A stretch of 32,000 nucleotides of DNA from an uncultured Alphaproteobacteria bacterium. GTDB taxonomy: Bacteria > Pseudomonadota > Alphaproteobacteria > Rs-D84. The stretch is taken from assembly GCA_963931495.1 (NCBI GenBank), contig OZ007020.1:60001-92000 (forward strand), read 5' to 3'. The notes beneath the pieces were generated by a model, which saw nothing but the letters and a program-made list of their open reading frames with translations, did not search any database and was not told where the DNA came from. Positions 4,249 through 18,163 of this stretch are shown here, in pieces (the first letter of the stretch is position 1; each line of letters starts with the position of its first letter). Position numbers and translations under genes: made by a program.

Positions 4249-4767
4249 TTAATACCGGCCAATACATCCCAAATACGCATTGCCGGTTGATTCCAGAATA
4301 TTTATAAACTGGCCCTGGTTCTTTCCAGAAAACAACGCCAGTATCGTTCCGGCATCTGTGGCCAACATATCTGCAACTGTTGCGATTCCAGAATTCATTT
4401 TCTTGAAAAAACCACTGGCCGGGTATATTTCCGCCGCCAGCAATTGATTTTTACCGCCACGCGAATGCGCCATTGTATTGCCATCAGACACAATTACCAT
4501 CAATTGGCATTCCGGCGATATTATCAGTTTATCTGTTACAAGGGCATTGCCACCCAACAATTCCCCCCACCAGCCGGTGGATTCACAAAATACAGGATAA
4601 TATACCGTCGCCCCTGGATTGGCCGCCAATACCGATAGCAAATCAAAATCACCTGTTATAACATCAGGCATCACGCCGGTTTCGGTATTTATAACCTTGC
4701 GCGATAACTGGTAATCAGAATCACCGGTTGTATTGCGTGGCCAATAAAGAATCGGAAACTGTTTCAT
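4249..4767 (-). CDS. Hypothetical protein, 172 aa (no family recognised)
   Basis: Clean ORF with an ATG start, co-directional with neighbouring genes. No signal peptide or TM segment seen. Confidence 0.7.
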   Translation of the reverse strand: MKQFPILYWPRNTTGDSDYQLSRKVINTETGVMPDVITGDFDLLSVLAANPGATVYYPVFCESTGWWGELLGGNALVTDKLIISPECQLMVIVSDGNTMAHSRGGKNQLLAAEIYPASGFFKKMNSGIATVADMLATDAGTILALFSGKNQGQFINILESTGNAYLGCIGRY

Positions 4768-4835: not shown

Positions 4836-6125
4836 TTATTTTTTTAATGATTCGTACCATTTCTTGGCATTTGCCCACACTTTATTTATGTCTTTTTTGG
4901 CTGTTTCATAGAAAGTTTGCGGTATTTCAACCTGGCTGAACAAAGTTTTTACTAATGCCGGTATCATTGTCATAAACATCGCGACAAATATTCCCATCAG
5001 CAGAATCGTTATTATACTGTCATTACGCATCATCAATCCGTCCATCAGCAATGTTGCATCGTTTTGTGCCAATGCCGCCGCCAATCTGTCAGCACCATGC
5101 CAGCGACCAAACACTGCATTCAAAAACATTACGGCAAATGTTATAAACACCCCAACCAGCGCAATTCCCAATGTAGATTTTATAACATCATCTATGATAC
5201 TGCGTATATTACGCCCACCGTTTGGGAAAATCGGCCAGCCTTTGAACAGCCACGACAGCAGCATTAATGGCAACATTATTAAATCCATAGACAATTTTAT
5301 AAAAACTTCCAGAAAATATAACGGAACGGGCAACAGCGCCATGAAAAACAGTACCAGTATTAATAACCCAGCAAAGAAAATCGGTACATTCGGAAATATT
5401 GGTATTACCCACATAATCTTGTGCATATATTCTTCATTAAACGCCATATTCAGCATAGTCCATCCGACCGTCATCCCCAGCCCAGTCATTTGATGTACAT
5501 TGGCAATTTCACATGCCAAACTGTGGCGCAAGTTCGGCGAAAACGCCCCAGATGACGCCGCATCAACGCTGGCCGATGTTGGGTCCGCCAACGCCGTCGC
5601 AACCATGCATTCGGCAAATTCATCATTTCCTGCGACGACACGATTTAACGACAGTCCGACATTAAATATTGGTTCAATAACAACACTGGTCAACAGCCGT
5701 GGTAATGGCGCCATCAGCAACGCACCAACAAAGCACAATTTTATCAGTTGCGTGCCAAAATTACCCGTCAGCGCCCATGGATCTTCTAATTTTGCGTTAA
5801 TAAATCCAGAAAACAATTTCCACGCAAACCAAACCGCCAATAATATCGCCGCAAATGGTAAAATAACCGTGCCAATTGCACTGTACACACGTGGTAACAG
5901 TCCACCCATTGTTGCCATAACATCAGAAAACATTTGGCACGACCAACATGTTGAAAAGAAATCCAGCGCATCAGACATATTAACCGGTGCCACGGTACGA
6001 TATATTGAAAAACCGGCAATTACACCAACGCCGGCAATTGCCCCAACAACAAATGGCGCAACAGCCCCCGCCGAAAATGGCAGAAAAGATAAAAAAATTA
6101 TCCAGAATTTTTTTAGTCTGTTCAT
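4836..6125 (-). CDS. Polytopic membrane protein, paralog 1 of 5 (tentatively TrbL/VirB6-like)
   Basis: ORF track gives 4836..6203. I trimmed it to the ATG at 6125 (MNRLKKFWIIFLSFLPFSAGA...), which has a signal-like N-terminus and a -10 box 8 nt upstream. 429 aa with at least 8 hydrophobic segments. Contains a CWSC motif and a loop Cys pair (ECMV...ACEI). The block LLILVLFFMALLPVPLYF...LPLMLLSWLFKGW is present. Lys-rich tail AKKDINKVWANAKKWYESLKK. Confidence 0.85.
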   Translation of the reverse strand: MNRLKKFWIIFLSFLPFSAGAVAPFVVGAIAGVGVIAGFSIYRTVAPVNMSDALDFFSTCWSCQMFSDVMATMGGLLPRVYSAIGTVILPFAAILLAVWFAWKLFSGFINAKLEDPWALTGNFGTQLIKLCFVGALLMAPLPRLLTSVVIEPIFNVGLSLNRVVAGNDEFAECMVATALADPTSASVDAASSGAFSPNLRHSLACEIANVHQMTGLGMTVGWTMLNMAFNEEYMHKIMWVIPIFPNVPIFFAGLLILVLFFMALLPVPLYFLEVFIKLSMDLIMLPLMLLSWLFKGWPIFPNGGRNIRSIIDDVIKSTLGIALVGVFITFAVMFLNAVFGRWHGADRLAAALAQNDATLLMDGLMMRNDSIITILLMGIFVAMFMTMIPALVKTLFSQVEIPQTFYETAKKDINKVWANAKKWYESLKK

Positions 6126-6194
6126 TGTTTTTAAGTATATCATATTTTGCATTAAATGTGATATAATTGAAAAGATAAAATTAATGTTGGGGGG
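6126..6194. promoter_or_regulatory. 69-bp divergent promoter region between paralog 1 (-) and paralog 2 (+)
   Basis: Minus strand: TGATATACT (-10 at 6134-6139), then 8 nt to the ATG at 6125. Plus strand: TGATATAAT (-10 at 6162-6167), then a ~27-nt leader ending in GGGGGG directly before the ATG at 6195. Confidence 0.5.
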
Positions 6195-7490
6195 ATGAAT
6201 CAATTAAAGTCAAAAATCTTGGCGATTATAACGCGCATAATTCCAGTGATTGTATGCGTCGCTGTGTTTTGCACATCATCCAGTGCGTATGCCGCCGATT
6301 ATTCATTGGTTGATTCACTGAATCTGGCCCCGTTTATCCCAATAATCCTGGATGCATTGATGGCCATTGCAACCGGTGGTTATGAATTTTTTGTCGGCAA
6401 CGGCGATGGTATTATTTATATCTTGGTTTGGGGATTCTTGGCCATATCATTGGCGGGATATTTATTAAAACTGTATTTTCCGAAAACATTTTCATCCATG
6501 CTGGATATTTCTGGTGGGGAATCTATGTCAGATGGCGTCGGTGGCATGACAATCGCAACAAATATGTTAAAGCCCACCATACGCGCAATTATCGCAGCGG
6601 TTGTATTATTGCAATTAAAGCCGATATATCTGACCGAATGGCTGGTTAACCCGTTTTTGCAGTTCGGCGCAATCTATACCGAAAGTATACTGGACACATT
6701 AAACGACACTGGAATTTCCGCCCCAGACGTTGAATGCCCGCCATCAGTTATTCAACAAGGATGGATTTCACAATCCAGTTGTGAATTTTTGGTGCAACCT
6801 GTGGCAGATATATCACACGCAAATAACCAGGTGATTAAACGCGGATTTGATTTCTTGACCAATGGGTTGCGCGGGATGTTAACCCTGATTCCGCACGGCG
6901 GTGAAAATCTGTTGAACGTGGTTACAGGACTGGTTTTAATCTTCACATTTGTGGCCAGCAATTTGTTTATGGCGATGCTGATTATCCAGGCGATATTTAA
7001 CTTTGGCATGGCGCTGGTGCTGTATCCATTCCAGGTCCTGGCATACGTGGCAAAACGCAGTGATAAATGGTTTGATATCTGGCCGGCGTTTGGCGGTATT
7101 ATCAAGGCACTGCAAAAACTGGTCATAACAATGATTGCATGTGCGTTTATATTGTGTGTAAATGTTGCGATTATAAAATCGTTGTTTCAATGGAGTTCAT
7201 CGGTATTCGTCGTTGCCGCCGGCGGGGTTGCGACATCTAATGTCCCCCAGGTTGCAAACACTGCGTTGGGATTCGGCCAACATTCGTTATTGTGGATGTC
7301 GTCAATACTAACGTTCTATTTGATGATGAAGATATTTAATTTAACACGTGAAAAATTGAATGAATATGTTGGTGCCGGGATGGACAACATGTACAACACG
7401 GTAAAGAAAGACACAACAAAATTGGTTAATAAAACAAAAGATTTTGGTAAAACAATTGGTAAAGCAATCGGGTGGATTAAAAAGAAATGA
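6195..7490 (+). CDS. Polytopic membrane protein, paralog 2 of 5 (tentatively TrbL/VirB6-like)
   Basis: 431 aa. Signal peptide ...VCVAVFCTSSSAYA/AD. Loop Cys pair (ECPP...SCEF). TM block LIFTFVASNLFMAMLIIQAIFNFGMALVLYPFQVLAYVAKRSDKW. Tail VKKDTTKLVNKTKDFGKTIGKAIGWIKKK. The stop overlaps the next start (ATGA at 7487-7490). Confidence 0.88.
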   Translation: MNQLKSKILAIITRIIPVIVCVAVFCTSSSAYAADYSLVDSLNLAPFIPIILDALMAIATGGYEFFVGNGDGIIYILVWGFLAISLAGYLLKLYFPKTFSSMLDISGGESMSDGVGGMTIATNMLKPTIRAIIAAVVLLQLKPIYLTEWLVNPFLQFGAIYTESILDTLNDTGISAPDVECPPSVIQQGWISQSSCEFLVQPVADISHANNQVIKRGFDFLTNGLRGMLTLIPHGGENLLNVVTGLVLIFTFVASNLFMAMLIIQAIFNFGMALVLYPFQVLAYVAKRSDKWFDIWPAFGGIIKALQKLVITMIACAFILCVNVAIIKSLFQWSSSVFVVAAGGVATSNVPQVANTALGFGQHSLLWMSSILTFYLMMKIFNLTREKLNEYVGAGMDNMYNTVKKDTTKLVNKTKDFGKTIGKAIGWIKKK

Positions 7491-8695
7491 ACGAATTTAT
7501 GAATTCTTTGGTTGATTCATCCGTACAGTGCTGGGGCTGTCCGGTGTTTGACCGGCTGTTCCAGATTGTGTCTGATGCGGCCGGGGCCGTGTATAATCAA
7601 TTTGTAATATTCTGTGCGATTATATTCTGTGTATTGTTCGCATTTTTCGTGATAAATGCCGTGTGGAAAAATATCAAGGGCGGCGTCGGTGACCCGTGGT
7701 ATCAGAAATCTGTTAAGCCTGTGATCATAAATTCACTGGTATCGTTGACTTTTTTAAGCATGGGGGTTTATCTGCCGCGGTTTGTGACAACAATTACTTT
7801 TGAACCCGTCGCAGATTTAGCATTAATATATACACAGAGTATGTTGCAAACAGATTCTGAAACACTAAATGAAAAAGTAACATATCAACCAATGAAAATG
7901 TCTGATGATGGTTTCTATCGCCCGCAACTGCGCGATAAAATCATTATGCTGATGAAGACAACAATAACCCAATTCCAATCGTATATGAAACTGGGGATTG
8001 CGGTTATGGATGGGGCATTTTCAATACGCGCATTATTGGGCATCGGCAATTTAATTAAGCATATTATACTGTTCTTTGTCGGGTTGTATTTATTTTATGG
8101 GTTCTTTAAGTTATTTGTACGGTTCTGTTTTTACTTTGCCGATATAATTGTCGCGATGACATTTTTTGCATTCTTTTTCCCATTGTCCCTGATTCTGATG
8201 GCGTTCAAGGGCGCAGATAATGTCCCACAATGGATTTCTGGACTGGGGCGCGGTATCGGCGTTGGGGAATTCAAACGATTAATTAACGCAATTATTACAC
8301 TGGCGGCCGCGGTGTTAACATACAGTGTTATAATGACAATTATTGCAAAATTCTTTGCCGCCCCGGGACAATCAGCCGCGGAAATAATGGAACTGATAAC
8401 CAGCGGAAATATATTTGCGACAGATTTATCGTTTGATAATCTGGAAAATATAACACTGGTATCATGCATAATACTGGTGTACGTGTTAAATTTCATATAT
8501 GCACAAATCCCCAGCATTACAAATATGGTACTGGGGACATTCGGCGTCAAAGAAGAAAACAAATTAAGTGAACAATTGGCTGATGATGCAATGGCATTAA
8601 CTAAAAATATCGCAAACGTTGCGAAAACAGTTGGAAAAAATATCATCAGTGGTGGCGAAACAAAAACAGACGGCGCAAAAAAGGACGGTAAATGA
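7487..8695 (+). CDS. Polytopic membrane protein, paralog 3 of 5 (tentatively TrbL/VirB6-like)
   Basis: 402 aa. N-terminal CWGC motif followed by FDRLFQIV, then a TM segment. About 7 hydrophobic segments. Block FFAFFFPLSLILMAFKGADNVPQW. Tail ...AKTVGKNIISGGETKTDGAKKDGK. ATGA overlap with the next gene at 8692-8695. Confidence 0.88.
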   Translation: MNEFMNSLVDSSVQCWGCPVFDRLFQIVSDAAGAVYNQFVIFCAIIFCVLFAFFVINAVWKNIKGGVGDPWYQKSVKPVIINSLVSLTFLSMGVYLPRFVTTITFEPVADLALIYTQSMLQTDSETLNEKVTYQPMKMSDDGFYRPQLRDKIIMLMKTTITQFQSYMKLGIAVMDGAFSIRALLGIGNLIKHIILFFVGLYLFYGFFKLFVRFCFYFADIIVAMTFFAFFFPLSLILMAFKGADNVPQWISGLGRGIGVGEFKRLINAIITLAAAVLTYSVIMTIIAKFFAAPGQSAAEIMELITSGNIFATDLSFDNLENITLVSCIILVYVLNFIYAQIPSITNMVLGTFGVKEENKLSEQLADDAMALTKNIANVAKTVGKNIISGGETKTDGAKKDGK

Positions 8696-10128
8696 AATCA
8701 GGTATGATTGCAATTATCATACGATTTTTAATGGGCGCAATTGCGTTGGGGATTGGCATATGGTACCTGTCTTCATCAATCAGTGGGGCAGCAATTACGT
8801 ATACCAGCATGGATGGTTTTCTGGGTGCAATTGGTGTGACAAACGGTGATATTGCAACCGCAAATGGGTGCTTTTTATGTAAATATATCGCCGAATTATT
8901 TGGTGTCATCGGGCGGGCGGCTGAATTATTCTGGACCGCAATGGTTGATAATATATGGATATTATTGGCCATCGGATTTGGAATATTTTTGTTTGTTTAT
9001 ACGGCCCAATATATATCGGATGCCGCAAAAAAAACACAAACACTGGATACAAATGAAAAAAAACTGGAACTGGCGGGATGGTTTGACAAAGTATGGCGCC
9101 AGGGCGCACGTGTGCTGATTGTCGGCGTGCTGATGGGCGCATTGGGCATGGGCGGAACCGCCGCATTAAAAACAGTGGCAAATATAACCATAACACCGGT
9201 GCTGTTTGTCGGCGCAGAATTATCAATGGCCGCCACCGGCGTGTCAGACGCAGCAACATGTGGCGCATTGACCACCACAGGTAAAAATGACGACATCTTG
9301 AACCCAATATTGCAGCCTTTTATGTGCGTAATGGGAAATATAAACAGTGTGATGCTGGCCGGGGCCGCAGGTGGATTTTCACTGATGAACTATGCATGGA
9401 TGGATATGGGTGGCGGTGCATTGACATGGGTTGCTGGATTGGCACTGGTGCTGATGTTTCTGGTAATTGGTTTTGACTTGGTTTTTCAAGTGCTGTCGGT
9501 TGTATTCAAATTGGTGTTTCTGATTATATTCTTGCCGTTGCTGTTGGCGGCGGCGGCGTTTGAACAAACGTGGTCGTTGGCCAGTGGCGTGGTAAAAAAT
9601 GCAATTAATATGCTGGTCAAAACAGCAATCCAAGTTGTGGGTATTACATTGAAGACATTAATAATATACGCAACTGTATCATTCGCCGCAGACACATATT
9701 TCCCCGGACCGCGTGATGGATACAGTGCGATATTACCCCCCATGATGGGCGCAGAAATTCAAAATCCAGACGCCCAAACAATGGCGGTCGTAAACGTATT
9801 TTCAACATGCGAACAGGTTGCCACCGCCAATGGCGAAATGGATAAAGATGTATTCAAAAATTGCTTTACCGCGCAACGCGCGGCGGTGGAACGCGAATAT
9901 CCCGGCGCATTTGATTTTATGGGTAACGCATGGGAATTCTTGTTAATTATGATTGGGTTGTTCTGTTTATATTTATATATCATAAAACCAAAAATTGATG
10001 GAATACTAAACGTTGGGGGCAAAGAAAGTTTTGACTTTGGAAACTGGGCAAAAGATTTAGGTAAAAAAATCTGGCATGCACCACAACAAATATTTGAAAC
10101 AATATCCAAGGCGGTCGGGAAAAAGTAA
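8692..10128 (+). CDS. Polytopic membrane protein, paralog 4 of 5 (tentatively TrbL/VirB6-like)
   Basis: 478 aa. CFLC motif. Loop Cys pair (TCGA...MCVM). The block LIIFLPLLLAAAAFEQTWSLASGVVKNAINMLVKTAI resembles the TrbL segment I recall (IPFGLFGKTAFMAERVLGNVISSGIKVLVL). Tail AKDLGKKIWHAPQQIFETISKAVGKK. Confidence 0.88.
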   Translation: MKSGMIAIIIRFLMGAIALGIGIWYLSSSISGAAITYTSMDGFLGAIGVTNGDIATANGCFLCKYIAELFGVIGRAAELFWTAMVDNIWILLAIGFGIFLFVYTAQYISDAAKKTQTLDTNEKKLELAGWFDKVWRQGARVLIVGVLMGALGMGGTAALKTVANITITPVLFVGAELSMAATGVSDAATCGALTTTGKNDDILNPILQPFMCVMGNINSVMLAGAAGGFSLMNYAWMDMGGGALTWVAGLALVLMFLVIGFDLVFQVLSVVFKLVFLIIFLPLLLAAAAFEQTWSLASGVVKNAINMLVKTAIQVVGITLKTLIIYATVSFAADTYFPGPRDGYSAILPPMMGAEIQNPDAQTMAVVNVFSTCEQVATANGEMDKDVFKNCFTAQRAAVEREYPGAFDFMGNAWEFLLIMIGLFCLYLYIIKPKIDGILNVGGKESFDFGNWAKDLGKKIWHAPQQIFETISKAVGKK

Positions 10129-10134
10129 TCTGTG

Positions 10135-11418
10135 ATGAAAAAACTGAAACGCATCTTTATAAAACTTCTGGTACTTATCGTCATGGTGGTGATGATGGGC
10201 CCGGCGGGTGCGGCCACCGCAAATGTCCCGATGTCGGAAATTGGCGATTATGGAACATGGGCCACAGACAGTAACATGGGGCTGTTCACAACAAATCTGA
10301 AAGACGATATAACGGCGTTTGAACAATCATCCACAGAAAAAACACTGGTGCCCGATTATGTACCCATAGAGGCGAAAATTGGACTGGCATTAATGAACGG
10401 ATTATCGCTGGTGGGGGAAGTTTTAGACAATTCGCTGGTACGATTTGTAATAATATTTTTAATTGTTGCGTACATATTCTGGGTGATGTTTGAAGCATAC
10501 AACATGATGACCAAGGGTTCCAGTGCAATGGAATTGGGCGTTAACCTGGTCAAAAAAGGTGCTGTTCTGGCAATATGGATTATCATCTTGGCATTTGGCC
10601 CAGCCCAGGTTTTTATGTGGGTAATGGGGCCGATTATCGGTGTTGCAACATATTTATCTGACCTGATATTAAACGCGGTTACAAATGTTATCGGCGTTCA
10701 ATTACCCGATACGTGTGCGGCGATACATCAATATGCTGCGACACATACGTCGCCCAACATGATTATTAATTCCGACGCCGCCGCAGATATGATGTGCCTG
10801 CCGACACGGCTGTCTGGATTTTTCGTAACAGCGGTTGCCACCGGATGGCAATGGGTTGTTAATGGCATTGGGACCAGTGCTTTTACTGTATTGGTTGGAA
10901 TTGCATTTATTGTAATATTTATCTATAACGCATTTAAGTTTGCGTTTATGGGACTGGGGGTTATTGTTGATTTATTCTTGGCTGTGCTGCTGTTACCATT
11001 CACGGCAATCAGTGAAACGATTGGCAAAACATCATACAAGGGTATCGCCGGTGATATATTTAACGGATTCCTGGGATTATTCAAAACAGAAACACTGAAC
11101 CGACAGATTGAACGTTTTATTAATGCGGCTGTTTATTTTGTATCATTGTCTGTTGTAATTGCCATATGTGCGGCCCTGTTATCTGGGACAGTCAGTTTGA
11201 ATAACGCAACAGACATACCAACATTAGAAAACAATGGATTTATTGTAACATTATTAACGGGATGCCTGGTTGCATACTTGGCATCGCGCGCCGACAGTAT
11301 TGCCAAAGATAACTTTGGCGGCAAAATTGACGCCAGTTTTGGTACAAATTTATCCAAAGACGCAAAAAAACTGTGGGACGACACAAAAAAATTCTTTAAC
11401 AAACTGGGTAAAAAATAA
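10135..11418 (+). CDS. Polytopic membrane protein, paralog 5 of 5 (tentatively TrbL/VirB6-like)
   Basis: ORF track starts at GTG 10132; I prefer the ATG at 10135. 427 aa. Signal peptide MKKLKRIFIKLLVLIVMVVMMGPAGA/AT. Loop Cys pair (TCAA...MCLP). Block DLFLAVLLLPFTAISETIGKTSYKG. Tail SKDAKKLWDDTKKFFNKLGKK. Confidence 0.87.
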   Translation: MKKLKRIFIKLLVLIVMVVMMGPAGAATANVPMSEIGDYGTWATDSNMGLFTTNLKDDITAFEQSSTEKTLVPDYVPIEAKIGLALMNGLSLVGEVLDNSLVRFVIIFLIVAYIFWVMFEAYNMMTKGSSAMELGVNLVKKGAVLAIWIIILAFGPAQVFMWVMGPIIGVATYLSDLILNAVTNVIGVQLPDTCAAIHQYAATHTSPNMIINSDAAADMMCLPTRLSGFFVTAVATGWQWVVNGIGTSAFTVLVGIAFIVIFIYNAFKFAFMGLGVIVDLFLAVLLLPFTAISETIGKTSYKGIAGDIFNGFLGLFKTETLNRQIERFINAAVYFVSLSVVIAICAALLSGTVSLNNATDIPTLENNGFIVTLLTGCLVAYLASRADSIAKDNFGGKIDASFGTNLSKDAKKLWDDTKKFFNKLGKK

Positions 11419-14294: not shown

Positions 14295-16445
14295 TTATTT
14301 ACATGTCTTGGATCCAACATCAAATGTTTTATCGTCCGGACACAACAATGACTGGTAAAACATTTGTGATATATTGGTTATACATGCATCAGCAGTGCTG
14401 CATGAGTTCGTTTTGTCATTTGCAAATACAGCGTATGCGCACGTCAATGCCACGTTATAGCATGCGCCACGCATAACGTTATATATACTGCCAATATCTG
14501 CATTTGAAGACCATGCATTAACCTGGGTCACCTGTTGGTTATAGCAATTTGCAACATCAACCATGCATTCAGATGCGTAATCTGATATTATCTGTTGCTG
14601 GGCCGCGCGTATATTTACCAAGGCACGCTGGATATAGTTCACAACAACATCATTGTATTGGTTGTATTTATTACCATCATCACTGTCGGTATATGTGTAC
14701 ATCTGGCATTTATCCAGTACCGGCCGACACAGACCGCCATCTGTGACCTCTTCCCCCATACCGATTTTCTGCATTAAATATTTTACGACGCTGGACCCGT
14801 TTGTGTCAGCTGCGTCATCAGCGGATCCTGTGACCGCGTTTTTTATAAAGTCGGCATTTATGGCGGAATTATCATATGTACTCATATTCGTCAATATTGT
14901 ACTGATATCTTGCCCCAATACCACTTCGCCGTTTTCATCAATGTATTTTTTGCTGGGGTCCAGGCATTTTTCATAATCAGAACCACACACCATGTCATCC
15001 GTCATACATGTTTCCAGCGCACCAATGCATCCGCGTATATCATACTGATTTTTGTTCTGGACAACCGCCAATCGCGCCTTTTGTAACATCAGATTTGCAC
15101 TGCGCACATTGGATTTTAATGTTTCGTTCATCTTTTCCAATCCCTGTTCATACGCAATACAATCCTTGTCAATTGCCAAATCGTAATTACCACTGATTTG
15201 ATCAATGTTTGCGCCGGCTTCCTTGCACTGGTTCAACACTGTCTTGCAACGACTTTTGGCCGCATTATACAGCGCCGTACCCCGCAGGTTAGATAAACTG
15301 GTCGTGCCCATATTCAAAAAGTCCAGACTGAACAAATCACTCATATCCGATGAAAAATCTATGTTCATGTCCAGTCCCGTATAACCACTGCTGGCGGTAT
15401 ATGATGTGCCACCGGTGGGGTCCATAATTAATTCTTCTATTTCTTCCAGCATATTGCGGTTTGCCGTGTTATCACGCGCGCCGGCCAGTGCCTCTTCTGC
15501 TTCTGTTGCATTCATGATTGCGCGTATTTCATCCGCCGACAGGCCAACATAGCGAATTTGTTGTGCAACCTCATTCAACTGGGTATTGGCATCGGTTACG
15601 GCTTCTTCTACTTCGGCATAATTAGATAAGTTTGCAGAACAAGAACAACGTCCCTGGTTAGAATCAATAACCGCACAGAATTGATCCATACAATCATTAT
15701 ACTGTTGTTGGCATGATGCGTTTAATTCCGCCGTCTGTTCCAATGTTGCCTTGGCCGCCGCGATTGATTCCGCCGTCGTTTCTGTTCCCGCGTTTGTCGT
15801 CGCGCGCGATTGGACGGCGCGTGCCTCGGTCGCGATATTAGAACCAGTCTGGATATCTGTGCCCGCGATTGTGGCACGACCGCCAACCTCGGCCGTGGTT
15901 GGTCGTAATGTTACACCCGCACGACGCACCACAGGATTACTGTTTATACTGGCCGATTCAACACGTGCGTTGCGCCCAACTGTGTTAACCGTCGCTTCTA
16001 AATTTTCACGCGCAGAATTTGTTTTTGTCGCACTGACCGAACGCGACACCGGTGCCGTCCGCGTATTGCCAGACCCACGTGATGTCGTTCCCGGCGCATC
16101 ATCGCCCATATTCAAAACGCGCGAACCAACACGCACAACCGATGTATCAGAAACCGATGTACCAGATGACGCGTCGCGATTTACAACACTGCGCACCGTA
16201 CCAGATTCAGTTTTTGTATCCCCAGATTCACGTGGTGATGCATCAGATACCACGTTCGCCGTTCGCACAACCGACGGCATAACCGCGGCACGTGATACAT
16301 TTGTCGCCCCCGCCGTGCGGCCAGATTGCGCCCCCGTATTACCGGCACCAGATGTCGGCAACACGCGTGATATTGTTGTATCCGCCAACGCAAATGGCGC
16401 AGTCATAACAACCGTCATAAAAAAACAAAAGGACGTTTTTTTCAT
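14295..16445 (-). CDS. Secreted protein, 716 aa: disordered Arg/Ser/Thr/Gly-rich N-terminal half plus Cys-rich (Cx6C) C-terminal half; no family recognised
   Basis: Signal peptide MKKTSFCFFMTVVMTAPFALA/DT. About 230 aa of low complexity with almost no Lys. This is followed by ~460 aa with many Cys, including CQQQYNDC, CKTVLNQC, CIGALETC, CRPVLDKC, CMVDVANC and CYNVALTC. Confidence 0.88.
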   Translation of the reverse strand: MKKTSFCFFMTVVMTAPFALADTTISRVLPTSGAGNTGAQSGRTAGATNVSRAAVMPSVVRTANVVSDASPRESGDTKTESGTVRSVVNRDASSGTSVSDTSVVRVGSRVLNMGDDAPGTTSRGSGNTRTAPVSRSVSATKTNSARENLEATVNTVGRNARVESASINSNPVVRRAGVTLRPTTAEVGGRATIAGTDIQTGSNIATEARAVQSRATTNAGTETTAESIAAAKATLEQTAELNASCQQQYNDCMDQFCAVIDSNQGRCSCSANLSNYAEVEEAVTDANTQLNEVAQQIRYVGLSADEIRAIMNATEAEEALAGARDNTANRNMLEEIEELIMDPTGGTSYTASSGYTGLDMNIDFSSDMSDLFSLDFLNMGTTSLSNLRGTALYNAAKSRCKTVLNQCKEAGANIDQISGNYDLAIDKDCIAYEQGLEKMNETLKSNVRSANLMLQKARLAVVQNKNQYDIRGCIGALETCMTDDMVCGSDYEKCLDPSKKYIDENGEVVLGQDISTILTNMSTYDNSAINADFIKNAVTGSADDAADTNGSSVVKYLMQKIGMGEEVTDGGLCRPVLDKCQMYTYTDSDDGNKYNQYNDVVVNYIQRALVNIRAAQQQIISDYASECMVDVANCYNQQVTQVNAWSSNADIGSIYNVMRGACYNVALTCAYAVFANDKTNSCSTADACITNISQMFYQSLLCPDDKTFDVGSKTCK

Positions 16446-17202: not shown

Positions 17203-17221
17203 GTGTTTTGCATAAAAAATT

Positions 17222-17254
17222 CAACAAAAACCCGCCGTGGGAGAACATGGCGGG
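17222..17254 (-). terminator. Rho-independent terminator after the 294-aa gene
   Basis: Minus strand: CCCGCC-12 nt loop-GGCGGG followed by TTTTTGTTGAATTTTTT. Confidence 0.55.
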
Positions 17255-17278
17255 AACTGGTTACGCAAAATTACAGTA

Positions 17279-18163
17279 TCACTGATAATATGCGTTTGAT
17301 GTGCAAGCCCAACTGCCGGTGGTGTCACTGCCGGTGCTGTACGAAGACGGAACATAGCATTTTGATACGGAAACTTCACCTGTGGGACCACTGGTGCCAC
17401 CGACACCGATATTGCCACCATACACCGCATCACCGGGATTGGCCGTCGTTTGGGTCCCAGACGAATGCGACGGGCACGGTGTACAATATTGTGATGGTTT
17501 TGCAGATGCACCTATTCCGCTTGTTTTGGGGGTTCCATAATAGCCCTTGGGGCAACGAATTTGTTTGGTCAGATTTGTCACACACTTATTACCACTGCAA
17601 CTGCGAAACGTACGCATTTGAATTGCATTACTGCCGCTGTATAAAGTTTCCCATTCGTCCGGCACGCATGTTGATTCATCACATGAACCAGACGGCGATG
17701 TCGTTTTGTTATACAGGCATTTATAGAATATCAATGTTGACGGACATCCGCGGATTTCAAATGTCTTGCGGGTGTAGTTCGTTTTGCAACCTGTTGCGGA
17801 TTTTGCGTAATATTTTATACCATCAATATCAAAACATACATTTGTGGTACCCGTGGCCCCAGAATCACCCAACACAGATGCAGACGAACCCGTATCTTGC
17901 CATTCGGTGCGACTGGAAATATCGGTACATCCCGCAGATATACACAACGCAAATCCGCCGCCACCACCACCGGCACCACCAGTACTATCTTCACACTGAA
18001 CACAGCAACTGGCGCCTTCCCAACTGCCGCATTCTATGCAGTTATGGATACATCTGTCGTCAGAAAAACTGATATCGCCACCCGAAGAACTGGCCGCGTT
18101 TGCATATTGGGCACACATGGTTAACATAATCGCCGAAAGCAAACCACCGTTTGGATTCGGCAA
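17279..18163 (-). CDS. Cys-rich putative secreted protein, 294 aa (about 22 Cys, Gly run, growth-factor-receptor/furin-like Cys spacing)
   Basis: Long ORF with a TTG start at 18163 giving a weak signal peptide, ...GLLSAIMLTMCAQYANA/ASS; the start is uncertain (next ATG at 18127). Contains GGAGGGGGG and RCPKGYYGTPK...QYCTPCPSHSSG. Confidence 0.75.
   Translation of the reverse strand: MPNPNGGLLSAIMLTMCAQYANAASSSGGDISFSDDRCIHNCIECGSWEGASCCVQCEDSTGGAGGGGGGFALCISAGCTDISSRTEWQDTGSSASVLGDSGATGTTNVCFDIDGIKYYAKSATGCKTNYTRKTFEIRGCPSTLIFYKCLYNKTTSPSGSCDESTCVPDEWETLYSGSNAIQMRTFRSCSGNKCVTNLTKQIRCPKGYYGTPKTSGIGASAKPSQYCTPCPSHSSGTQTTANPGDAVYGGNIGVGGTSGPTGEVSVSKCYVPSSYSTGSDTTGSWACTSNAYYQ

Follow-up and report, generated by a model that had tools for sequence, protein, structure and literature searches.

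Five divergent paralogous membrane proteins, probably of the VirB6/TrbL superfamily, are encoded by a conserved gene array in Candidatus Enterousia

The window analysed here is a stretch of 32,000 nucleotides on contig OZ007020.1 (assembly GCA_963931495.1, positions 60,001 to 92,000 of the forward strand). Its source organism is Candidatus Enterousia of the order Rs-D84, with a genome of about 0.9 Mb, which the NCBI taxonomy places in Alphaproteobacteria incertae sedis; one protein of the window falls into a cluster that carries this genus name at NCBI and in UniRef. Some related metagenome-assembled genomes were labelled 'uncultured Rickettsiales' by their submitters. An earlier reading, made from the sequence alone (hereafter the sequence-only reading), had described positions 4836-11418 of the window as an orphan array of five paralogous membrane proteins, possibly related to TrbL/VirB6 of type IV secretion systems (T4SSs). 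Five intact open reading frames (ORFs) of 429, 431, 402, 478 and 427 aa, here called M1 to M5, fill this interval, all at the coordinates and in the order given in that reading.

4836-6125, minus strand: M1, 429 aa, VirB6-like paralog 1, divergent from the other four
6126-6194: AT-rich divergent spacer of 69 bp between the starts of M1 and M2, read from the sequence
6195-7490, plus strand: M2, 431 aa, VirB6-like paralog 2, which opens the four-gene operon
7487-8695, plus strand: M3, 402 aa, VirB6-like paralog 3
8692-10128, plus strand: M4, 478 aa, VirB6-like paralog 4
10135-11418, plus strand: M5, 427 aa, VirB6-like paralog 5, which closes the operon and is convergent with uvrD

The array is flanked by a gene for a hypothetical protein of 172 aa, rpmE and a suhB-like gene on one side and by uvrD on the other, as had been described. 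ATGA start/stop overlaps connect M2 to M3 (7487-7490) and M3 to M4 (8692-8695), and M4 and M5 are separated by 6 nt; these junctions were read directly in the sequence and agree with the sequence-only reading. An alternative GTG start of M5 at 10132 would reduce the last gap to 3 nt. For M1, the start that gives 429 aa is the same as in its orthologs, according to the subfamily alignment, and longer starts on some contigs (435/438 aa) would cut the spacer to about 42 bp. Among related species the equivalent spacer measures 38-73 bp, and in the window it contains a Shine-Dalgarno-like GGGGGG run immediately 5' of the M2 ATG. The 69-bp spacer had been interpreted as a shared promoter region. Its length was confirmed, but a promoter scan of 6126-6194 yielded consensus-level matches only, not above those in shuffled sequence, so that the two back-to-back promoters presumed to lie here are read from the geometry alone.

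Aligned with MAFFT, M1-M5 are collinear from end to end and follow one common plan. A variable N-terminus and a first hydrophobic helix precede a loop with the motif P..vT.....P and a helical periplasmic region, which carries a Cys pair in M1 (C173/C205), M2 (C181/C196), M4 (C190/C212) and M5 (C194/C221), the four of five proteins expected from the sequence-only reading. The second half consists of a double hydrophobic block that ends in a helix with an invariant Pro (P286 in M1), a short turn, two hydrophobic helices and a Lys-rich amphipathic tail. This C-terminal helix, described earlier as a Lys-rich tail, is visible in the five-protein alignment as well as in the structural models of M1 and M2 (see below). 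Four of the Pro-helix motifs listed in the sequence-only reading (LYPFQVL, FFPLSLIL, FLPLLLA and LLPFTAI) align with one another; the fifth had been misplaced, as the M1 counterpart is IMLPLMLL, which contains P286, and not LLPVPLYF.

The five proteins have individual features in addition to the common plan. M1 starts with a signal-like or transmembrane segment followed by a CWSC motif (C60/C63) and ends in the Lys-rich helix, and four Cys are invariant in the alignment of its subfamily. M2 begins with a signal peptide that looks cleavable (…SSSAYA), and M5 also has a signal peptide. M3 contains a CWGC motif near its N-terminus and is without a signal peptide, and M4 contains a CFLC motif and an extra insert of about 50 aa ahead of the last hydrophobic helix. 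The CxxC motif is thus found in M1, M3 and M4.

Sequence identity among M1-M5 is 19-22% in the five-protein alignment and 21-25% over local BLAST matches. With blastp, the best pair was M1-M3 (56.6 bits, collinear), followed by M2-M5 (42 bits over 324 aa), M1-M5 (39 bits) and M1-M4 (35 bits), and the other pairs were weak. A profile built from the five proteins and searched against 1.84 billion representative proteins recovered 898 clusters (at 50% identity) with E<=1e-3, including 78 with E<=1e-30; a word-indexed search with the same profile found close orthologs of M1 only. After filtering by length, score and margin, 77 of 150 listed representatives fell into five clear-cut groups, one around each window protein. 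Comparison of the five group profiles using hhalign gave matches for 10 of 10 pairs, with probabilities of 96.6-99.7% (E 1e-10 to 1e-26) over 243-366 collinear columns, versus 0.2-20.7% for the reversed-template controls of the same pairs. The M2 profile was linked to those of M1, M3, M4 and M5 at 96.6-99.1%, and the links of the M3 and M5 subfamily profiles reached 98.1-99.7% and 98.1-99.1%, respectively. Because every pair of group profiles matched and the reversed controls failed, M1-M5 are, as judged from these comparisons, paralogs derived from old duplications. The paralogy proposed by the sequence-only reading is therefore upheld by the profiles, all of them far above their controls, while direct pairwise alignment gives just weak to moderate scores.

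Kinship with VirB6 was detected at the level of pooled profiles. As a canonical reference we used an alignment of 11 VirB6 proteins from R388, IncN, IncU, Xanthomonas, Agrobacterium and Bradyrhizobium plasmids. The 76-sequence alignment of the window family matched this reference in hhalign with a probability of 93.6% (E 2e-7) over 247 columns, which span positions 93-403 of the family and 25-276 of VirB6. The score of this match was 60.9, versus at most 31.7 in 2 reversed and 20 block-shuffled controls (probability <=11.6%). In this alignment, the Pro of the GPLFI-type helix of canonical VirB6 (the invariant P181 in TrwI of R388) is matched by the invariant Pro of the window family, P286 in M1.

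Distant relatives from other uncultured Alphaproteobacteria, which also occur in arrays (described below), bridge the two families. Each window subfamily matched the distant-array sequences with 98.9-99.9% in hhalign, and 37 of these sequences matched canonical VirB6 with 97.2% (E 4e-11) over 274 columns, covering VirB6 residues 8-281, versus 2.6% in the reversed control. Nine of 45 distant family members have a match to the Pfam TrbL model PF04610, and three of them, P0365 (32.6 bits), P0371 (27.6 bits) and P0377 (26.6 bits), exceed its gathering score of 25.9 bits. These three proteins were found by the five-protein profile at E ~1e-17, and M4 matches P0371 directly (76 bits using phmmer). 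P0365 is named 'type IV secretion system protein' at NCBI; a tblastn search with this protein against 72,556 plasmids gave no match. A word-indexed search with the distant-array profile returned two proteins.

The predicted structures point in the same direction. An AlphaFold2 model of M1, built on the 76-sequence family alignment, reached a mean pLDDT of 86.2 and a pTM of 0.78. Using Foldseek against 350,542 PDB chains, its top matches were TrwI/VirB6 chains of the R388 T4SS (8rtd_L, 8rt9_F and 7o3v_J/G/F) with probability 1.00, E values of 6.5e-4 to 1e-2 and target-normalised TM-scores of 0.54-0.59. The sole match to another protein with E <0.1 was 9f63 (probability 0.66, TM-score 0.13). M2, the paralog least similar to M1, was modelled separately (pLDDT 82.9, pTM 0.74), and its first seven matches were all TrwI/VirB6 chains with probability 1.00 (best E 2.4e-3). 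For both models TrwI/VirB6 were the only PDB matches with probability 1.00, and no transporter fold was matched with a probability >0.35. M1 and M2 are thus predicted to have the VirB6 fold as seen in R388 TrwI. The entries 7o3v and 8rt9 are R388 structures that contain the VirB6 pentamer, which forms a platform at the inner membrane, at the base of the periplasmic stalk and beneath the VirB5 pentamer, and has only two N-proximal helices of each subunit in the membrane (PMC12857230). Fold matches, profile-profile scores and relatives above the TrbL threshold together support the TrbL/VirB6-like nature suggested by the sequence-only reading, and M1-M5 are with high probability very divergent members of the VirB6/TrbL superfamily.

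The array is highly conserved among related species. When one genome was scanned for each GTDB species, 295 loci with an M1 relative were identified, of which the best 80 (64-92% identity) were used. M1 is single copy in all 80 species loci, and 74 of them have a single intact copy of every group, with gene lengths, order and orientation all conserved. The remaining six loci are without one to three genes (M3, M4 or M5), several of them being on short contigs, and M5 occurs once in 74 of the 74 loci that extend that far. Junction overlaps of -4/-1 nt predominate across species, and the median identity of the orthologs to the window proteins is 60-71%. Some M1 orthologs (P0235/P0237/P0249, 640-714 aa) have Gly/Ser-rich linkers together with an additional domain at the C-terminus and in this recall 'extended VirB6' proteins. 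On the evidence of these alignments, the whole five-gene set is under strong purifying selection in a gene-shedding lineage.

Most of the 80 species also have the array at the same chromosomal site, between rpmE and uvrD (172-aa gene in 79 loci, uvrD in 61). Searches for T4SS genes covered 10 kb on either side of the array. With tblastn, VirB1-6, VirB8-11 and VirD4 of R388 matched nothing in the window, and the R388 set gave nothing credible at 6 further loci; Pfam annotation identified housekeeping genes only among the array neighbours. The orphan status reported in the sequence-only reading is therefore not peculiar to the window and extends to 80 related species and ~14 distant loci. The 172-aa gene (4249-4767, minus strand) follows M1 directly in the same orientation and encodes a soluble protein without a Pfam match. 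Of the 80 related loci 79 contain it, with its median position again just downstream of M1, and with a median identity of 78.5% it is better conserved than M1-M5. It could be co-transcribed with M1.

The distant relatives also form tandem arrays of four or five genes with overlapping junctions (L087-L094, L106-L111), for example:

L088: array members of 770, 781, 857, 474 and 650 aa
L092: array members of 603, 474, 754, 506 and 676 aa
L089, L094, L107, L108 and L110: four or five members each

Like the array in the window, these arrays (e.g., in GCA_009929265.1, where NCB49288.1 is annotated as 'hypothetical protein') contain CxxC and loop-Cys motifs and have no T4SS neighbour: they are flanked by housekeeping genes, and no Pfam-recognisable or R388-like T4SS gene was found in the 10 kb around them. 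They differ from it in the size of their members, most of which have 420-860 aa or more and are extended at the N-terminus; some are fusions, and several pass or approach the Pfam TrbL threshold. Except for an M4-like member, they are not one-to-one orthologs of M1-M5. P0377 (494 aa) contains an SseC-like translocator segment, and P0381 and P0395 (1433 and 1331 aa, respectively) contain an N-terminal Peptidase_M23 domain (peptidoglycan hydrolase, VirB1-like activity).

Several families recur beside the distant arrays and have no counterpart in the window, among them a family of ~220 aa, a double-HTH regulator and a small gene. A small gene of 86-95 aa with the appearance of a membrane protein is located directly upstream of the first array gene (L087:1015-1275, L088:4967-5227 and L092:4189-4476). 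It has no Pfam match, and its size and position are reminiscent of virB3 (95 aa in Rickettsia) or a pilin. Beside the arrays of L089, L094 and L107-L111 we detected further families without Pfam matches, with lengths of 215-228 aa (divergent upstream, five loci), 274-561 aa (four loci), 618-636 aa (three loci) and 282-420 aa (three loci), and a double HTH_3 regulator is encoded just downstream of the array in four loci. In the lineages concerned, the recurrent neighbours may be partners of the VirB6-like proteins.

In comparison with TrwI and other canonical VirB6 proteins (PF04610; 7O3V, 8RT9, 8RTD), the window proteins share the predicted fold and a hydrophobic-helix core that is collinear over ~250 columns, but identity is 11-14% and the window proteins are 60-135 aa longer. 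Features beyond those of plasmid VirB6 are the N-terminal signal or transmembrane segment, the CxxC motif, the Lys-rich C-terminal amphipathic helix and a larger periplasmic loop with the conserved Cys pair. Canonical VirB6 is encoded by a single gene, in contrast to the five paralogs in the window, and all plasmid VirB6 genes collected here are flanked by VirB5/EexN/VirB8, whereas the window array has no such neighbours.

In known systems virB6 is located in the virB operon or, in the rvh system of Rickettsiales, adjoins virB3-virB4 (PMC2653234). In Rickettsia, five virB6 genes lie in tandem directly after virB3-virB4a (islet A); they are ~80% diverged, and the VirB6/TrbL domain has a mean length of 413 aa (PMC2653234). 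The rvh T4SS has multicopy VirB6, duplicated RvhB4, RvhB8 and RvhB9 and no VirB5 (PMC2653234, PMC11077975). The array of Enterousia resembles it in being found in a reduced alphaproteobacterial genome and in having 4-5 tandem, extremely diverged VirB6 copies that are kept across the lineage; the rvh domain of ~413 aa has about the length of a whole window protein, and rvh genes also occur outside a single operon. It differs in that RvhB6a-e measure 670-1150 aa and have large flanking domains, compared with 402-478 aa in the window, and are recognised as VirB6/TrbL by standard models, which the window proteins are not. The one divergent gene and the rpmE/uvrD neighbours are likewise unlike rvh. 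In sum, the array encodes a known kind of protein in an unannotated variant form, and its arrangement recalls that of rvh without being the same.

A second precedent is provided by the Patescibacteria, which need a T4SS to grow on their host and carry six divergent VirB2 pilins in an array (PMC12857230). These bacteria are also genome-reduced and partner-dependent and have tandem copies of one T4SS subunit that are conserved in structure and divergent in sequence. The duplicated subunit in this case is the VirB2 pilin and not VirB6, however, the host is monoderm, and the array sits inside a recognisable T4SS locus.

We give a probability of about 0.5 to the reading that M1-M5 are five VirB6-type subunits in the platform of a T4SS-like machine whose other parts are scattered elsewhere in the genome. 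M1 would be transcribed one way and M2-M5 the other way from the short divergent spacer, all being expressed as one unit, and the start/stop overlaps would favour equimolar translation of M2-M5. The five products may co-assemble into one envelope complex, in the simplest form a 1:1:1:1:1 heteropentamer that would replace the VirB6 homopentamer. This complex would be the central conduit or platform of a type-IV-secretion-like contact machine, through which a metabolically dependent gut bacterium with a genome of ~0.9 Mb might exchange macromolecules with a partner cell, the remaining parts being encoded elsewhere as in the rvh 'archipelago' of Rickettsiales. Co-assembly would be the most economical arrangement because the five paralogs are single-copy, co-transcribed and translationally coupled and none is ever lost, and a role as a T4SS-type conduit is favoured by the precedents of the Rickettsia virB6 and Patescibacteria VirB2 arrays. 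The data show the paralogy, the VirB6 homology and predicted fold, the strictly kept five-gene set and the lack of T4SS genes within 10 kb; co-assembly, five subunits per complex, the connection to T4SS genes in other parts of the genome and the proposed function are inferred. A literature search for a VirB6 heteropentamer found nothing.

Several results weigh against this reading, and some of them concern the kinship itself. The direct test, hmmscan against Pfam, gave no match for any of the five proteins, to PF04610 or to another model, even at E<=10, and NCBIfam gave none either. PDB sequence searches with the 5-sequence and 76-sequence profiles did not recover VirB6, their sole match being a designed helical protein. 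Single subfamily profiles reached only 2-26% against canonical VirB6, and the family compared with the single TrwI sequence gave 0.2%. The invariant and essential Trp of VirB6 (W199) aligns with a non-Trp column, and the Trp found a few positions before it in four of the five paralogs lies in a loop of other length. The fold matches are moderate (target-normalised TM-score 0.45-0.59, rmsd 7-11 A), and the five-group orthology stops short of the distant arrays, most members of which score best with the M1 profile. Since direct and single-subfamily tests fail, the VirB6 link is carried by pooled profiles, intermediates and predicted folds. The missing Pfam, NCBIfam and PDB sequence matches, the non-significant single-subfamily profiles and the moderate TM-scores would also suit a lineage-specific family of polytopic membrane proteins (e.g., transporters) with a likeness to VirB6 that comes from hydrophobic composition and helical packing. 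We consider such an origin very improbable, as composition-preserving controls reached at most 11.6% versus 93.6-97.2% for the real comparisons, two independent models selected the same PDB protein among 350,542 chains with transporter folds at <=0.35, and intermediates exceed the curated TrbL threshold of Pfam. Chance similarity of hydrophobic proteins was ruled out by the reversed and block-shuffled controls. That virB6-like genes are orphaned from other transfer genes could suggest a decaying remnant of an integrated conjugative element, in which virB6 copies were left after the loss of the rest. Decay would, however, yield pseudogenes and patchy presence, and is therefore contradicted by five ORFs that are intact and length-conserved in 74 of 74 complete loci at 60-71% median identity. 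In addition, the G+C content of M1-M5 (0.40-0.46) is like that of the adjoining genes, neither an integrase nor a flanking tRNA is present, and the rpmE-uvrD position is fixed in most of the 80 species. A mobile-element remnant was thus rejected on composition, chromosomal position and intact ORFs, and its probability is close to nil.

Other results on the same side concern the machine. VirB1-5, VirB8-11 and VirD4 were not found in the window, within 10 kb of the array in the 80 Enterousia-group loci or around the ~14 distant arrays, and unlike in rvh, neither virB3 nor virB4 lies within 10 kb in any of the 80 species. When the R388 VirB/VirD4 set was searched against the window and 94 loci (1.86 Mb) using tblastn, the only match was a marginal one to VirD4 (E 0.003). 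No paper linking Enterousia or Rs-D84 to a secretion system was found in the literature, and no secretion system is mentioned in the Rs-D84 genome survey (PMC12306168). The one pointer to a pentameric assembly of M1-M5 is the agreement of five single-copy paralogs with the fivefold symmetry of R388 VirB6. A less probable but real alternative is a stand-alone VirB6-derived membrane or periplasmic complex. Such a complex, for example a channel for uptake or contact, would work with neither VirB4, VirB11 and VirD4 nor an outer-membrane core. It is suggested by the lack of adjoining T4SS genes in ~20 independent genomic contexts, with none found within 10 kb of the array in the 80 species or of the ~14 non-syntenic distant arrays. 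The distant arrays have their own recurrent neighbours, none of which is recognised by Pfam as a T4SS part, and the window proteins, which are beyond Pfam recognition, have extra N-terminal segments and a disulfide-bearing loop that are absent from plasmid VirB6. The Rs-D84 survey gives the status of flagella and type IV pili and not of a T4SS, and reports many unexplained membrane proteins (PMC12306168). Silence of a genome survey is weak evidence, however. Moreover, we know of no VirB6 homolog that works outside a T4SS. The rvh system shows that T4SS genes can be widely scattered (PMC2653234). The specific version, in which Enterousia and related Alphaproteobacteria with reduced genomes have no T4SS driven by VirB4, VirB11 and VirD4 and the envelope channel is a free-standing heteropentamer of the five paralogs, seems rather doubtful. 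The paralogs might also be alternative subunits, each assembling into a homo-oligomer that gives the machine its own specificity for substrates or partners. In favour of this, VirB6 of R388 forms a homopentamer, divergence among the paralogs is greatest in the N-termini and periplasmic loops, and the number of members in the distant arrays (four or five) is not fixed. This is nevertheless unlikely given one copy of each in 74 of 74 species despite strong genome reduction, in one translationally coupled operon; no copy was lost or duplicated, and obligate partners therefore fit better than interchangeable variants. Whether the five subunits belong to a scattered T4SS or to a stand-alone complex, they more probably form one heteromer than five alternative homomers.

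The rest of the window encodes PBP1, the suhB-like protein, rpmE, uvrD, an RNase T-like protein, rpmA/rplU, pyruvate phosphate dikinase (PPDK) and an rRNA operon. Further features are:

14295-16445, minus strand: secreted-looking 716-aa protein with a signal peptide and no Pfam match
17279-18163, minus strand: secreted-looking Cys- and Gly-rich 294-aa protein, no Pfam match
17203-18072, plus strand: ORF overlapping the previous one almost fully on the opposite strand
25806-31043, minus strand: complete rRNA operon (16S, tRNA-Ile(GAT), 23S, 5S)

The 716-aa protein has an N-terminal half of low complexity, rich in Ser, Thr, Gly and Arg, and a C-terminal half with 23 Cys, many of them in C-x6-C spacing; its gene was detected in 47 of 80 related loci (10 kb on either side of M1). 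The 716-aa and 294-aa proteins may be surface or adhesion proteins of a host-dependent bacterium. Because the ORF at 17203-18072 reads as a Cys/His/Arg-rich antisense artefact, the one at 17279-18163 is probably the real gene. Neither ARAGORN nor Rfam detected a tRNA-Ala in the 16S-23S spacer, which contains tRNA-Ile only. We also considered the 172-aa neighbour of M1, the 716-aa Cys-rich protein and the other window ORFs without Pfam matches as hidden T4SS parts, and rejected them since sequence searches showed no similarity to R388 components or to the recurrent neighbours of the distant arrays.

With these results, a large set of unannotated membrane proteins so far listed as 'hypothetical' (898 clusters, with M1 relatives in 295 species genomes) gains a fold and an evolutionary origin. 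Enterousia is common in the guts of humans, livestock, poultry and termites. The genus, which GTDB places in the order Rs-D84, is represented by gut metagenomes only and has genomes <1 Mb; it lacks respiration, most biosynthesis and standard transporters and was proposed to depend on other cells (PMC12306168). Five single-copy, coupled paralogs of a pentamer-forming subunit suggest a testable hetero-pentameric VirB6 platform, which, if true, could explain why Rickettsiales keep 4-5 very different virB6 genes despite genome reduction. The missing T4SS neighbours in ~20 independent contexts raise the question of whether VirB6-type proteins can work outside a classical T4SS. A stand-alone channel, if it exists, would be a previously unrecognised transport or cell-contact apparatus that evolved from a part of a secretion system, and through it a transporter-poor bacterium would take what it needs from partner cells.

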